Assembly: GCA_013288335.1 (NCBI GenBank)
Contig: JABDCC010000005.1
Span: 1,313-65,312 of the forward strand
Direction: 5' to 3'
Length of the DNA stretch: 64,000 nucleotides
Origin: Alphaproteobacteria bacterium
Lineage (GTDB): Bacteria > Pseudomonadota > Alphaproteobacteria > Rickettsiales > JABCZZ01
Numbering within the stretch: position 1 is the stretch's first letter; every line of letters begins with the position of its first letter. Made by a program: the position numbers and the translations under genes. The notes under the pieces are model-generated. The model worked only from the letters and a program-made list of their open reading frames with translations. It ran no database searches and had not been told where the DNA came from. Positions 43,998 through 47,803 of this stretch are shown here, one piece after another.

Positions 43998-45572
43998 ATG
44001 GACGAGAATACGAATAGCAATTCAGAAGTTCAGAATCACATTACCATGCTGGATGAAACTCGCATCCAGAAAAACGCACAATCAAAATATTACCGTAATA
44101 TCTGGGGAAGTTACAAAGGCCATATCCGCGGCATGCTCACCGGTGGCGGCATCGGTGCAGTAGTCGGTGCTACACTTGGGCTCATCGCATTACCTATTGT
44201 AGGTCCTATAGGTATTATTGCCATGACCTGTGCAAGCGCATTGGTAGGCGCAGAAGGCTTCGGCACAGTTGGCGCAACAGCAGCAGCACGCTCAACCAGT
44301 TTAGCGGAAAAACATGCGCGTATGCTTGATCCTGAAAACGCAGGCGACCCTATAAAAACCATCGATGATAAACTGATGGATGACGGAGCTGGCAATCACT
44401 ATGAATTTCCAACCGATCGCGATAAAAATAAATTTTTCTCATTCAAATCAGGATTAACCGGAGCAGCTATCGGAGCTGCATCAGGCGCTTTGCTTGCATG
44501 GGGCGGAGTTGCATTCTTTGTTACCGCCCTTAGTGGCTTTGGCATACCGGTTATAGCAGCCGGTGCAATCATCATGGGTATGTTCGGCCTTACCTTTGGT
44601 GTGGAACGCGGTGTTTTTAAATCTATTTTTAACCACACCGATAAAAATATTAGTGGCAAAATTTATAATGGTCACGACCCTGATCTTGGTAAGGAACAAA
44701 ATCCAGATCTCAGCGATCCTGAGTTACTTGCAAAACGTATGGAGCGTCAGGACACTATCCGCCGCTTTGAAAAAGAATATCAGGATAAGATTTTCTGGGG
44801 AGCAGCCACCGGACGCTTTAAAGGTTTTGCTGGCGGTGCAGTTACCGGAGGAATAGTAGGCCTTGCAGCAGGTGCGATCGCACTCGGTATAGTTGCTTTA
44901 TGTTCCGCTCATTTCCTTGTCGCAGCTGCAACCGTAAAATTGCTTATATCATGCTTTGCCGCAAGTGGTGCATTTCTTGGAATGAATACATTTTCAGAAG
45001 CTGGCACCCAAGCTGGTGCAGAGTCAACCTCCCGCGCAATCGATGAAGAGTTTGAACGCAACCGCGTATTGCTTGCTAAAGGTATTGCACCCACTCCGGG
45101 TAAAAAAGAAAAAGAAGAATGGTTTAACTGGAAATCTGCTGCCTTGATGGGACTAATAGGCATTGCTGTCGGTATTGCGCTTGCACCTATTCTTGGACCA
45201 GGCGTTGTTTTTCTATTGGGCCATGTTGGTACTGCTACATTTGGCGCAGCGGCAGCAATTCCTGGGACTTTTAGCGCTGCTACTATTGGTATTTCAGCAA
45301 TTATATCAGGCGTAGTTGGAGTTTCTTACGGACTGGGTGGAAAATTCTTGCATGGCATCGGAAGAACAGCAAACAAACTCTATAATAATGTGTATTCCAA
45401 CACAGTGGAAGAAAATCCTGGAATGACACAAACACCATCAGTCAGTCTTCCTGTGCGTGATAAAATTACGCAGGCCGATGCAGAGTTGCTCAATAGTAAA
45501 ATGCCTGTACAGGGTGAAAAGAATTTCGGCAATATGGTCAATCAGCCAAGCTCTATTCAGGTAGGAATGTAG
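43998..45572 (+). CDS. ORFan polytopic membrane protein with four glycine-zipper hairpin modules (family member A)
   Basis: 524 aa with four repeats of an aromatic/basic lead-in (WGSYK, FFSFK, FWGAATGRFK, WFNWK), each followed by about 50-60 Gly/Ala-rich hydrophobic residues (GxxxG ladders). Charged linkers separate the repeats. It carries the conserved C-terminal motif LLNSKMPVQGEKNFGNMVN. Confidence 0.75.
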   Translation: MDENTNSNSEVQNHITMLDETRIQKNAQSKYYRNIWGSYKGHIRGMLTGGGIGAVVGATLGLIALPIVGPIGIIAMTCASALVGAEGFGTVGATAAARSTSLAEKHARMLDPENAGDPIKTIDDKLMDDGAGNHYEFPTDRDKNKFFSFKSGLTGAAIGAASGALLAWGGVAFFVTALSGFGIPVIAAGAIIMGMFGLTFGVERGVFKSIFNHTDKNISGKIYNGHDPDLGKEQNPDLSDPELLAKRMERQDTIRRFEKEYQDKIFWGAATGRFKGFAGGAVTGGIVGLAAGAIALGIVALCSAHFLVAAATVKLLISCFAASGAFLGMNTFSEAGTQAGAESTSRAIDEEFERNRVLLAKGIAPTPGKKEKEEWFNWKSAALMGLIGIAVGIALAPILGPGVVFLLGHVGTATFGAAAAIPGTFSAATIGISAIISGVVGVSYGLGGKFLHGIGRTANKLYNNVYSNTVEENPGMTQTPSVSLPVRDKITQADAELLNSKMPVQGEKNFGNMVNQPSSIQVGM

Positions 45573-45573
45573 T

Positions 45574-46533
45574 ATGGAAAACACTCCTATTACCAATCCA
45601 TCTCCTGAAACCAAGCTCACCAATGAGCAAATAGAACGAATTGCCGACGAAAACGGTGAAATCTATCGCCGCGACATATTTAAAACTTCATGGAAGATTC
45701 GCTCACAAGGCTTATGGGCCGGCGGTGCGATTGGATTATTTTTTGGCGCAATTATTGGTGCACTGACTCTGGCTTCAACACTAATTGTCGGTGTCAGCTT
45801 GGCTTCTATTGGTGCAATGTTTTTACCCGTGGTTGCCGCATTTGCAATCTCAGGAATGGTTGCCGGAGTAGCGGCAGTAAGCCTTGTAGGTGCCAATGTT
45901 GGCGCAGCAGTGGGTGCCGAGAAAGTAAAAGATAGAAAAAGATTACTGAATTCCCCCGAGCAAGCGCTTGCTGAAACCATAGAATATAAAGGAACCGCTG
46001 AGGAAAAAGAAACTTTCTGGAATAAAATACTTCCTTTTACTAAAGGAAGCAGAGAAATATTCAGCATTCGCAATGGATTGATATTTGGGGCACTCGGAGT
46101 TGGCGTAGGTTTGCTATTGATAAGTGTTGCTCCAGCCCTGGGTGGCGGTGCTCTCATGATCGGCACAATAAGTGCTTTTGTAAAAGCCCATGTCGCCGCC
46201 AGTTTATTTATACCCGCTATTAACTGTATGACTATTGCAGCATGCGGTTTATTTGGCGCGTTCTTTGGCGTAGATATTCCCACCATAGGTGCAAATGCCA
46301 GCAAGTTCTTTGGTGATATATTTACGGGTAGATTATTTAAATCATCACCGGAATTAGCCCCACAAGTGGCAAATGAGATTTCTGCAAAACAGCAACGTGC
46401 AACCACAGTGACTCCGGAAGAAGCAGCATTGCTGAACAGCAAATTACCAAAACCAGGCGAAAAGAATTATCAGAATATGTTAAATGTTCAAAATAGCACC
46501 ACAGTTACGCCATCAATGAGTTCACCAAACTAA
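45574..46533 (+). CDS. ORFan membrane protein with two glycine-zipper hairpin modules (family member B, paralog of A)
   Basis: 319 aa. Its N-terminus aligns by eye with A (IYRRDIFKTSWKIRSQGLWAGGAIGLFFGAIIG against YYRNIWGSYKGHIRGMLTGGGIGAVVGATLG). The C-terminal motif is LLNSKLPKPGEKNYQNMLN. The ATG lies 1 nt after the stop of A. Confidence 0.75.
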   Translation: MENTPITNPSPETKLTNEQIERIADENGEIYRRDIFKTSWKIRSQGLWAGGAIGLFFGAIIGALTLASTLIVGVSLASIGAMFLPVVAAFAISGMVAGVAAVSLVGANVGAAVGAEKVKDRKRLLNSPEQALAETIEYKGTAEEKETFWNKILPFTKGSREIFSIRNGLIFGALGVGVGLLLISVAPALGGGALMIGTISAFVKAHVAASLFIPAINCMTIAACGLFGAFFGVDIPTIGANASKFFGDIFTGRLFKSSPELAPQVANEISAKQQRATTVTPEEAALLNSKLPKPGEKNYQNMLNVQNSTTVTPSMSSPN

Positions 46534-46544
46534 GGGAAGATTTT

Positions 46545-46919
46545 ATGCAGGATACAAATACAACCATAATAATAAGCAGTGCAAACTCCCTTCAGGAAGA
46601 GGCGCTCGCTAATATTTCACGCCCTATAATCAAGTTCAGAAATAAGGCTGGCAAATATGACACCAAGAATGAATCATTAAGCCTGTTTCAAAAAATATGG
46701 CAGTTTTTTGCCAAAGTATTTAACGCCAAGAAAATTATTCTGGCTGAACCGGAAAAAGCAATAATAGTGCAAGCTGAACAATCGACAAAACCTACTGCAG
46801 CAAGCACTATTTCCACTCAGCCTGCGATGAACACAGATTCTAGAGTGCATAACAACCTATATAAAATAGCCGTGCAGCAGTTTAATAATATGGATATTTC
46901 ACAAACCACGAAGAACTAA
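46545..46919 (+). CDS. hypothetical small soluble protein within the glycine-zipper cluster
   Basis: 124 aa with no hydrophobic segment, on the same strand and 11 bp after B. An SD-like GGGAAG lies upstream. Confidence 0.55.
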   Translation: MQDTNTTIIISSANSLQEEALANISRPIIKFRNKAGKYDTKNESLSLFQKIWQFFAKVFNAKKIILAEPEKAIIVQAEQSTKPTAASTISTQPAMNTDSRVHNNLYKIAVQQFNNMDISQTTKN

Positions 46920-46929
46920 CAGGTAAAAC

Positions 46930-47385
46930 GTGAGTAGCTTGAGCAAAATATTTGGGATTGTAATAGCAGGAGCGCTTGTTATAGGCGGCATTGCAGCGCT
47001 TGGCGCTGCTGTGGTTGCAGGTTGTAGTTTATTCTTTGTAACCAGTTCTGCTTTGACATTCGCTACCGGACTTGGTGCAGTTCTAGGCGCTGCAGCTCAT
47101 GCATTTCTTTATGGCGGGCTGGTAGGCGCTGCAATAGGCGGCGCGATGGGAATAGCATCAGCAGTGGGTGAAGTGTTTGCAAAGAAAAGCAGAAGAAGCA
47201 AGCCAGGTGCGGAATCCGCAGAAGCACTAGAGCACTCCAAAGCCAGAGAAAAAGCAAAAAATATTGAGCAGCCTGCACCCGAAGAACCTGAAGTAACAAA
47301 CCCACTCTACAAAGAAGGGCTTGGCGCAGCGCTTTATAATAAAGGTAAAGAAAAAACCACAGAACCTGCTTACGGCAGAGGATAG
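46930..47385 (+). CDS. ORFan small glycine-zipper membrane protein (family member D)
   Basis: 151 aa from a GTG start. The N-terminal ~85 aa are Gly/Ala-rich and hydrophobic, followed by KKSRRSK and a charged tail ending NPLYKEGLGAALYNKGKEK... Confidence 0.65.
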   Translation: MSSLSKIFGIVIAGALVIGGIAALGAAVVAGCSLFFVTSSALTFATGLGAVLGAAAHAFLYGGLVGAAIGGAMGIASAVGEVFAKKSRRSKPGAESAEALEHSKAREKAKNIEQPAPEEPEVTNPLYKEGLGAALYNKGKEKTTEPAYGRG

Positions 47386-47395
47386 GAGAAAGTAT

Positions 47396-47803
47396 ATGGA
47401 AGAGAAAACCGGTTTTTGGCATAGTGTTGGCAATGTCATTAGAAGCGCTATCAAAGGCGCTGCAATACTTGGGGTCATAGGGCTGGCCATCGGTGGTGTT
47501 GCAGGCTTGGTAGGCATCGGGGGCGTGGGTGTGGTGGCACTTGCGTTAGGGGGCGCGTTATGGGGAATTGTAACAGGAGCTAATATAGGCGGGCTGGTGG
47601 GAATAGTGAAAGAGGTAATGGGTTTAGGAAAAAAGAAAGAGTCTGAGCAATCATTTGAACAAAGCAACACACGTTCGCAACCACTCACCCCTACTCGTCA
47701 ATTGTCACAGCAACCGGATTTAAACCCTTACGCTCCTGAAGGACTGGGTGCTTCCATTGTGAATGCAAACCGTGGAAAATCGGAAGCAAGAGGCAGAAGC
47801 TAA
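47396..47803 (+). CDS. ORFan small glycine-zipper membrane protein (family member E, paralog of D)
   Basis: 135 aa from the ATG at 47396 with a strong SD (AGGAGA). It has GFWHSVGNVIR then the zipper GAAILGVIGLAIGGVAGLVGIGGVGVVALALGGALWG, and a tail with NPYAPEGLGASIVNANRGKSE. Confidence 0.65.
   Translation: MEEKTGFWHSVGNVIRSAIKGAAILGVIGLAIGGVAGLVGIGGVGVVALALGGALWGIVTGANIGGLVGIVKEVMGLGKKKESEQSFEQSNTRSQPLTPTRQLSQQPDLNPYAPEGLGASIVNANRGKSEARGRS

Follow-up and report, generated by a model that had tools for sequence, protein, structure and literature searches.

A conserved five-gene operon encodes an undescribed family of glycine-rich helical-hairpin membrane proteins in Alphaproteobacteria

Introduction

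The glycine-zipper helical hairpin is an already known principle of membrane proteins, and several described systems offer points of comparison for proteins built from long hydrophobic segments. The Inc proteins of Chlamydiae, which are specific to that group, are defined by their presence in the inclusion membrane and exported through N-terminal signals for the type III secretion system (T3SS), and they possess one or more bilobed hydrophobic domains of 40-60 residues made of two helices and a short loop, whose sequence is poorly conserved, next to soluble parts that are helical or coiled-coil (PMC3048545). Here we analyze a cluster of five genes, termed A to E, located in a stretch of 64,000 nucleotides (hereafter the window) of contig JABDCC010000005.1 from the genome assembly of an alphaproteobacterium (GCA_013288335.1). 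A to E constitute a real five-gene operon of an undescribed membrane-protein family built from glycine-rich helical hairpins.

Other comparable proteins have been found in different contexts. Transmembrane effectors of the type IV secretion system (T4SS) usually carry one or two helices of moderate hydrophobicity, which form hairpins with short loops and an N-in/C-in layout, and display a conserved C-terminal region (PMC12981334). Calcyanin, encoded by ccyA, marks intracellular carbonate inclusions and consists of a soluble N-terminal domain followed by three contiguous GlyZip units; these are tandem apolar repeats of ~50 residues with glycine or a small residue at every fourth position, and they are predicted to form compact helical membrane assemblies of no known fold (PMC8890360). 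Within the Alphaproteobacteria, the Cdz system of Caulobacter comprises several small paralogues per cluster with extended GxxxGxxxG motifs in segments rich in Gly, Ala, Val and Ile, the toxins CdzC/D being 84-86 aa long and equipped with RTX-like leaders (PMC5380434). At the regulation level, the closest described promoters are those of the Pho regulon. The PHO box is generally defined as a pair of 11-nt direct repeats that have a core of 7 conserved nt and lie upstream of the -10 element (PMC4415409), and a study by chromatin immunoprecipitation sequencing established the alphaproteobacterial PhoB consensus as YGTCAYR-N4 (A-rich)-YGTCAYR (bioRxiv 10.1101/741363).

Organization of the cluster

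The five genes lie on the forward strand with intergenic gaps of 1, 11, 10 and 10 nt (Table 1), and gene calling on the source contig (Logan SRR8430184_261, 69.6 kb), made independently, gives the same five products. This is the arrangement that an earlier note on this DNA had described from the open reading frames (ORFs), and the flanking genes that it had named, mce upstream on the other strand and a convergent LOG gene downstream, are both present. The stop codons of E and of the LOG gene overlap by 4 nt (47800-47803), and no terminator-like hairpin was found between these two convergent genes. Shine-Dalgarno-like sequences precede B, C and E, and the whole cluster is served by a single upstream promoter. 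Long antisense ORFs of up to 259 aa run opposite to the Gly/Ala-rich coding regions (45663-46442, 44111-44395 and 47227-47688, all on the reverse strand); they are probably a by-product of Gly/Ala codon composition and not genes.

Table 1. Position of the genes, protein segments and promoter elements of the A-E locus in the window
Feature	Position	Strand	Description	Basis
Gene A	43998-45572	+	524 aa	ORF listing and gene call
Gene B	45574-46533	+	319 aa; starts 1 nt past the stop codon of A	ORF listing and gene call
Gene C	46545-46919	+	124 aa	ORF listing and gene call
Gene D	46930-47385	+	151 aa; GTG start	ORF listing and gene call
Gene E	47396-47803	+	135 aa from ATG	ORF listing and gene call
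Left flank	43448-43852	-	glyoxalase-family mce-like gene, 134 aa	
Right flank	47800-48345	-	LOG-family gene, convergent with the cluster	
A hairpin 1	44130..44270	+	aa 45-91, type 1, GxxxGxxxG ladder	hydropathy, charge counts, AlphaFold H20-63/H65-110
A hairpin 2	44448..44606	+	aa 151-203, type 2	hydropathy, alignment, AlphaFold
A hairpin 3	44823..44996	+	aa 276-333, type 1, zipper p 0.006	hydropathy, charge counts, AlphaFold H241-302/H306-360
A hairpin 4	45123..45341	+	aa 376-448, type 2	hydropathy, AlphaFold, profile match
A C-terminal tail	45459..45569	+	aa 488-524, ITxxDAxLLNSK...GEKNFxNM	BLASTP of A against B tails, alignment of A
B anatomy			type-1 hairpin aa 45-115, type-2 hairpin aa 162-240, tail aa 277-319	
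Promoter box TGTCACAAAAACTTAACT	43886..43903	+	18-nt direct repeat, half-sites 11 bp apart	alignment and pattern scan
Sigma-70-like promoter	43904..43931	+	TTTATA-16-TATAAT; TATAAT at 43926-43931	consensus scan, 10/12 matches
Second box copy TGTAACAAAAGCTTCACA	11513..11530	+	TACTTT hexamer 21 nt later	position weight matrix, 22.4 bits

Repeat anatomy of A and B

Hydropathy and charge counts reveal hydrophobic, nearly charge-free blocks in four of the five products: four in A, two in B, one each in D and E, and none in C, in agreement with the counts of the earlier note, whose lead-in peptides and example hydrophobic stretch can all be located in the sequence. The blocks comprise 47-84 residues with 0-2 charged residues, so that the description of these stretches as long enough for a transmembrane hairpin stands, and AlphaFold models them as long helical hairpins. 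They are separated by charged linkers of 42-72 residues, rich in K/R and D/E, again as had been noted.

B matches both halves of A (BLASTP, E 5e-16 and 3e-10) and scores 62.8 bits against it, local shuffles reaching no more than 39.3 bits. These comparisons make A and B true paralogues, A being a B-like unit duplicated in tandem. A module profile built solely from a distant clade of single-unit proteins matches A four times, as type 1 (aa 9-98), type 2 (132-232), type 1 (261-351) and type 2 (370-447), which describes A at the sequence level as two units of type 1 plus type 2 followed by a C-terminal tail. With this profile the halves of A score 71.5 and 64.6 bits and B 22.9 bits. Therefore, A is best seen as the duplicated orthologue of a core gene present throughout the clade, and B as a more divergent paralogue. 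Orthologues of A are 34-42% identical. No kinship between the two types of module was detectable by hhalign (probability 11%); instead of the single repeated module previously envisaged, two unrelated types alternate along these proteins.

The GxxxGxxxG motif is enriched over shuffled sequences in the type-1 blocks of A (aa 45-91, p 0.03; aa 276-333, p 0.006) and B (aa 45-115, p 0.001) and in E (p 0.03), whereas no such enrichment over shuffles was observed in type-2 blocks; accordingly, the claim that the modules carry GxxxG ladders holds for type 1 and for E but not for type 2. Hairpin 2 of A is followed by a conserved interfacial helix, GLTFG(V/I)ER..FKSIFN. Finally, A and B end in a common tail, ...T.(E/A)DA.LLNSK.P..GEKN(F/Y).NM.

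The small proteins C, D and E

Gene C encodes a protein with an isoelectric point (pI) of 9.6 and no hydrophobic block, whose tail ends in QQFNNMDISQTTKN. A short basic amphipathic segment at aa ~45-66 is visible, by reading, in C and also in its orthologues. C is orthologous to L006_g3, from the locus of a relative (36.2 bits, shuffles up to 21.6). The orthologues of C match the last ~55 residues of the B-type protein P0143 (49.7 bits) and of the A-type protein P0006 (32.0 bits), with shuffles not exceeding 26.6 bits, and the C of the window itself gives a weaker score against A/B-type tails (21.9 bits). C had been described as soluble and possibly chaperone-like; the lack of a hydrophobic block agrees with the first part, but its pI and the A/B-type tail of its orthologues are at odds with a small acidic secretion chaperone.

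D begins with a Gly/Ala-rich hydrophobic block (aa 1-84), continues with a charged linker and carries the C-terminal motif NPLYKEGLGAAL; in E, the lead-in GFWHSVGNVIRSAIKG and a glycine-zipper hydrophobic block (aa 13-71) are likewise followed by a charged linker, and the C-terminal motif is NPYAPEGLGASI. The two score 40.0 bits against each other (shuffles up to 25.8) and have a C-terminal motif of their own, NP(Y/L)..EGLGA; judged by this similarity, they are paralogues of each other. D also has a relative in L009_g2, which is second in the gene order of a distant cluster (47.4 bits, shuffles up to 28.9), while E scored no higher than shuffle controls against L009_g5 and L008_D. When D and E were compared with the A/B modules by hidden Markov model (HMM), the scores fell within local-shuffle controls, so that the likeness of D/E to A/B appears to be compositional only. 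Thus, of the paralogous family of four proteins proposed earlier, the pairs A/B and D/E stand, but not the relation between the pairs. Among small proteins of other clusters, L007_g5 (29.5 bits) and L009_g5 (22.9 bits) are recognized as single type-1 modules, with controls reaching at most 10.6 bits. A VAGC sequence at residues 29-32 of D raised the possibility of a lipoprotein, which was dropped because the cysteine is missing in D-like relatives.

A new family at a fixed chromosomal address

A word-indexed search of 5.8 billion proteins retrieved 12 relatives of A, and a full HMM search of 1.84 billion representatives of 50% identity clusters (E up to 1e-3) retrieved 260, including ~45 A-like proteins of 500-690 aa and more than 100 single-unit proteins of 310-440 aa. 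None of them has a Pfam domain, and their names are uninformative ('hypothetical protein' only). When D was searched database-wide, only D itself came back; the designation ORFan given to the whole cluster therefore suits D, but not A and B. The best-conserved positions of the family adjoin the hydrophobic blocks: WESYKG.VKGKLGG before and HEF..VG after hairpin 1, and FWKVA before and GASFGINRD.FR..FD.TD after hairpin 2. In the large single-unit clade the C-terminus is strongly conserved as well (...HRD.....A..ALLS(F/M)DHT.A..H).

Scans of A-E against Pfam, NCBIfam, PADLOC and PHROGs gave no significant match, and the sub-threshold ones (EI24, DUF2207_C, xenorhabdolysin A subunit, ssl2009, TrbL, LeoBC, phrog_944) were driven by composition. 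PDB sequence searches with the family profiles of A and B yielded coiled-coil noise only, the inter-module linker of the wider family scoring against coiled coils alone, and a Pfam scan of neighboring ORFans and long family members revealed no fused domain. The Pfam glycine-zipper families Gly-zipper_Omp, Gly-zipper_YMGG, Gly-zipper_OmpA and Rick_17kDa_Anti were matched neither by A-E at E up to 1 nor by eight proteins from relatives at E up to 0.1, in scans where HMMER filters may drop very weak matches. D and E resemble holins, which are small proteins of 2-3 helices with a charged C-terminus, in general shape only (Phage_holin_3_6, E 0.96) and have no phage context, and the PHROG matches are weak (E 0.003-0.01, 'membrane protein'). 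Bacterial dynamin-like proteins (BDLP/LeoBC), which combine a GTPase domain with a helical stalk and its hydrophobic paddle, are matched weakly in the paddle region (LeoBC, E 7.9e-4 for E; Dynamin-like_hel_bact, E 0.62 for B), but no GTPase domain is present. Foldseek searches with AlphaFold2 models, a step suggested in the earlier note, were equally negative: the best hit of A in the PDB had an E of 0.31 with TM scores of at most 0.17, and the best hits of B had E values of 1.3 in the PDB and 0.53 in BFVD. That the earlier note recognized no described family is thus borne out in all these collections. A-E match no known family or fold and so represent a new family.

In 11 of 11 distinct loci of relatives, as in the window, the core gene and mce are immediate neighbors in divergent orientation, DUF1467 taking the place of mce where the latter is absent. 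The proS-lolCDE(-dnaE) block of Alphaproteobacteria is kept on one flank in most of these loci, and RNase J-coaX-birA-nuoNML on the other flank in four of the five loci from the single-unit clade. This synteny (nuoLMN-birA-coaX-rnj / mce-DUF1467-proS-lolCDE-dnaE) places the family in the Alphaproteobacteria. The genes that follow the core gene vary: L005 and L016 have none, L002 and L008 have C plus a D-like gene, and L006 has B, C and a D-like gene, with the same 1-nt gap between A and B as in the window. L007 carries B and three small hairpin proteins, followed by DUF883 and a holin-like protein, and three to six small ORFans come after the core gene in L009, L011 and L015.

A-E have a GC content at third codon positions (GC3) of 0.33-0.41, like the neighboring genes, and no relatives were found on plasmids or phages by tblastn or in a scan of IMG/VR. 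The cluster is a vertically inherited, syntenic feature of the whole clade, old in the lineage and under selection. The fixed synteny, the native GC3 and the absence of plasmid or phage relatives together weaken the ideas of a toxin/immunity-like set, one of the functions offered in the earlier note, and of a recent effector island; the picture of an island-like cluster among unrelated housekeeping genes must likewise be abandoned. Contigs of the relatives encode flagellar MotA, a Tad pilus, nuo, cox, NAD synthesis and the homogentisate pathway, and the window contains leuBCD, asd, dapDE, ilvD and rmlABD. These free-living-type genes of the relatives, taken with leuBCD, asd, dapDE and ilvD of the window, indicate that the hosts are not only reduced endosymbionts.

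Several further observations were made at the loci of relatives. The DUF883 (ElaB/YqjD-like) gene and the Phage_holin_3_6-like gene behind the L007 cluster (12129-12745) form a pair that is part of a stationary-phase membrane-protein operon in E. coli, which hints at a stress-related context. In the same nanopore-derived contig, the A-type gene (7770-9332) was called 5'-truncated, with the type-1 lead-in FWGSLQRPRHR... readable upstream in another frame, and proS (5987-7277) is split into three calls; these breaks look like assembly frameshifts rather than pseudogenes. A pentapeptide-repeat protein, assigned by Pfam in L002 (11591-12805) and L006 (12536-13660) and by sequence reading in L008 (12952-14100), lies on the reverse strand beside the LOG gene in all three and has no counterpart in the window.

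A conserved promoter box

An 18-nt direct repeat precedes the sigma-70-like promoter of the cluster (Table 1). Its consensus, TGTCACA-AAAC-CTTCACT, was derived from nine mce-core intergenic regions with a GC content of 44-62%, among which the core columns are invariant. The box is found in the window and in ten of ten relatives' loci checked (L002, L005-L009, L011, L013, L015 and L016), always on the strand of the cluster and ending 20-22 nt before a -10-like hexamer, the position of the -10 being conserved relative to the box. The distance to mce varies from 28 to 148 nt. Since the spacing is fixed toward the -10 of the cluster and variable toward mce, the box belongs to the cluster promoter, and its assignment to mce was rejected on the same grounds. 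The -35 hexamer, TTTATA, is weak, which suggests dependence on an activator.

The box pattern occurs twice in the window, where 0.05 occurrences are expected. The second copy lies 68 nt upstream of an ORFan of 102 aa (11598-11906, +) without a Pfam match, in whose sequence a single hydrophobic stretch and a tail rich in Gly, Asn and Gln can be read; it probably belongs to the same regulon as the cluster. In relatives, scanning with a position weight matrix also located the box before D-like genes in L002 (10199, +), L011 (11057, +) and L015 (11064, +), before a 460-aa ORFan in L008 (TGTCACAAAACTGTCACT; 12247, -), and, in L006 (3322, -), before an ORFan of 347 aa that itself lies upstream of two genes for M48-like peptidases. 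All these D-like genes and ORFans lack Pfam domains.

The architecture of the box, as read from its sequence, is that of sites for the OmpR/PhoB family. Like Pho regulon promoters, it has two 11-nt direct-repeat units with a GTCAY core, an A-rich spacer and a poor -35 (PMC4415409; bioRxiv 10.1101/741363), but it ends 20-22 nt before the -10 and its second repeat is degenerate (CTTCAC or CTTAAC). Boxes of the cluster type fit YGTCAYR-N4-YGTCAYR with 2-3 mismatches, and better fits are those of L008 (TGTCACAAAACTGTCACT) and L002 (TGTCACCAAATCGTCATT). The likeness to a Pho box is a lead and not an identification. No pst or pho genes occur in the window or in the relatives' loci read, and the general-stress promoter of EcfG (GGAAC-N15-18-CGTT) has no match anywhere in the window.

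Structural models

The AlphaFold2 models are all-helical with long hairpins, at a predicted local distance difference test score of 57.6 for A and a mean of 69.6 for B. Two long hairpins stand out in A (H20-63/H65-110 and H241-302/H306-360), and the model of B begins with H17-71/H76-126 and continues with three shorter helices that are hydrophobic and with amphipathic helices. The turns of the hairpins measure 1-15 residues in both proteins. None of A-E has an N-terminal signal peptide. The linkers of A and B, which are K/R-rich and partly coiled-coil, are the best-conserved parts of these proteins.

A possible function and its alternatives

The interpretation that we favor, and that we place slightly below an even chance, is that the cluster encodes an inducible inner-membrane hairpin-protein complex under the control of an OmpR/PhoB-type regulator. 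Gene structure, repeat anatomy, family, synteny and promoter box are read directly from the data; from them we infer topology, oligomerization, the identity of the regulator and the physiological role. According to this model, A-E would be transcribed as one operon from an activator-dependent promoter, the regulator binding the direct-repeat box just upstream of the weak -35. A and B would be polytopic inner-membrane proteins with two helical hairpins per unit connected by short uncharged turns, their N-terminus, all linkers and the C-terminal tail remaining in the cytoplasm. GxxxGxxxG is a classical surface for tight helix-helix packing, and the zipper carried by the first helix of each type-1 hairpin could serve as such a surface, so that the hairpins of A and B would be expected to pack with one another and with the free-standing hairpins of D and E. 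Such packing would produce a hetero-oligomeric assembly in the membrane, in the form of a scaffold or of a channel-like bundle, with A/B as the core and D/E as accessory components. As the orthologues of C in relatives bear an A/B-type tail, C would be a basic peripheral protein that docks to, or competes for, the same cytoplasmic partner as the tails of A and B. An envelope or nutrient signal would switch the complex on, phosphate limitation being the leading candidate.

A number of observations weigh against this interpretation. The core protein is only 26-66% identical between loci, compared with 77-93% for Mce, 58-85% for ProS and ~70% for RNase J, so that the family evolves about twice as fast as its neighbors, and the turnover of accessory genes between close relatives is a pattern common for host-interaction proteins. 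At the promoter, the box of the window has three mismatches to the PhoB consensus, which at two mismatches occurs in the window at chance frequency (9 found, 9.7 expected). The Pho box of E. coli ends ~10 nt before the -10 element, and the box of the cluster lies ~12 nt, about one helical turn, upstream of that position. Helix hydrophobicity is marginal, from -0.9 to +2.5 kcal/mol as against -4.3 for the first transmembrane segment of FtsK in the same window according to crude, position-independent Hessa sums, and such values also suit exported or pore-forming proteins. Besides, the proposed topology derives from the charge distribution (K/R-rich flanks) and from models of medium confidence only.

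Part of this evidence would also be explained if A-E were translocated membrane effectors, functional analogues of Inc proteins or of T4SS transmembrane effectors. A secretion system with genes at another site would export them, and they would enter the membrane of a host or prey as hairpins, the shared tails serving as export or recruitment signal. Short loops, an inferred N-in/C-in layout and moderate hydrophobicity would correspond to the profile of T4SS transmembrane effectors (PMC12981334), and the blocks (47-84 residues, 0-2 charges, turns of 1-15 residues) have the bilobed form of Inc proteins. A portable C-terminal tail shared by A and B, and in relatives by the C family and some A/B-type proteins, the separate C-terminal motif of D and E, the fast evolution of the family with its gene-content turnover, and the presence in the window of ankyrin-repeat (Ank) and leucine-rich-repeat (LRR) proteins and of other ORFans, one of them ending in KKNIKKRRR, all point in the same direction. 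Nevertheless, we regard export as a live but rather unlikely rival. The 64-kb window and the flanks read contain no secretion-system genes: T3SS genes are missing from the window, and T4SS genes from the window and from the relatives' 20-kb flanks, save one weak VirB3 match in L016. The tails show no clear positive charge (net ~0 to +2 over the last 30 residues, by reading) and no E-block, and A, with eight predicted helices, is more complex than the typical translocated membrane effector of one or two. Moreover, the locus keeps its place and is passed on vertically in lineages whose gene content is of the free-living type. Inc proteins, for their part, are restricted to Chlamydiae and depend on N-terminal T3SS signals (PMC3048545), whereas the present family is alphaproteobacterial, conserves its predicted-cytoplasmic linkers and C-terminal tails, and shows no match to them in sequence or fold.

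The repeated long glycine-zipper hairpins, the coiled-coil linkers between them and the conservation of the family throughout the clade would also be compatible with a membrane-shaping or compartment-forming system, by analogy with Mic10/reticulons or with the GlyZip repeats of calcyanin, whose central Gly-Pro recurs in module A1 (PMC8890360). This is improbable in our view. The resemblance, which extends to apolar repeats with periodic small residues, predicted compact helical membrane assemblies and the lack of a known fold on either side, is one of structural theme only; the Gly-Pro is present in module 1 of the window's A but not conserved in the family, no homology to the (GlyZip)3 arrangement is detectable, and there is neither an NCBIfam PdsO match nor a Pfam glycine-zipper match. 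Instead of three contiguous units, A and B alternate two unrelated module types with long conserved charged linkers, in other organisms and another genomic context. Very improbable, finally, is a Cdz-like glycine-zipper pore-forming toxin or bacteriocin set, in which A/B or D/E would permeabilize target membranes and another member would protect the producer. CdzC/D and class IIb bacteriocins typically contain glycine zippers and segments rich in Gly, Ala, Val and Ile (PMC5380434), and the marginal hydrophobicity of the helices and the several small paralogous membrane proteins of the cluster would be in line with this possibility. However, neither leader peptides nor adjacent type I secretion genes accompany A-E, whose neighbors are mce, proS, LOG and dapD, no toxins of 5-10 kDa with an immunity gene can be recognized among proteins of 135-524 aa, and in L005 and L016 the core gene stands alone without any possible immunity partner. 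In addition, Cdz-like systems are patchy and island-borne (PMC5380434), in contrast with the syntenic, vertical transmission, native GC3 and lack of plasmid or phage relatives of this cluster.

Other features of the window

Some other products of the window deserve mention. An LRR protein of 414 aa (35999-37243, +) adjoins an ankyrin-repeat protein of 285 aa (37303-38160, -), and repeat proteins of this eukaryote-like kind hint at interaction with a host that is a eukaryote; L006, too, has an Ank protein close to the cluster. A 653-aa ORFan (20127-22088, +) without a Pfam match has a GC content of 35%, low against ~44% for the window, and a GC3 of 0.30, and may have been acquired horizontally. 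Another ORFan without a Pfam match (33969-35114, -) is an acidic protein of 381 aa with a strongly basic C-terminus, ...SKKNIKKRRR; basic tails of this sort are seen in type IVA secretion substrates or nuclear localization signals. A protein of 294 aa (40269-41153, +) with a prepilin-type N-terminus, GFTLIEMSIVLVIIGLI, and no Pfam match on record looks like a type IV pilin or pseudopilin. Lastly, a phytochelatin-synthase-like gene (59914-60627, -) lies beside a gene for a 715-aa protein with a spermidine-synthase domain (57702-59849, -), a pair that is unusual for a small alphaproteobacterial genome.

Biological significance

With these results an anonymous five-gene block becomes a protein family with a defined anatomy, that is, alternating module types, a duplicated core unit and a shared tail, and with a fixed chromosomal address and a conserved promoter box. 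The box predicts that a regulator and a condition for induction exist, the tail that its bearers share a binding partner, and the glycine zippers that specific point mutations in them should disrupt assembly. A broader and doubtful, though real, possibility is that this uncultured clade carries a so far undescribed, stimulus-induced regulon of ORFan membrane proteins defined by one promoter box. Its core would be a hairpin protein of modular build, with glycine zippers and a C-terminal address tag that is portable, and its products would be delivered into a membrane or remodel it in a new way, either as Inc-like effectors evolved independently outside Chlamydiae or as a new membrane-shaping complex under phosphate limitation. 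Lineage-specific uncharacterized membrane families are common, and the surprise for a specialist is accordingly moderate on present evidence; the significance would be higher if a role in export or membrane remodeling were shown. If the proteins are exported, hairpin effectors of the Inc-like kind would have been invented independently in Alphaproteobacteria. If the proteins reside in the inner membrane, they would constitute a new family among the few glycine-zipper hairpin assemblies, possibly with a part in the adaptation of the envelope to nutrient stress.

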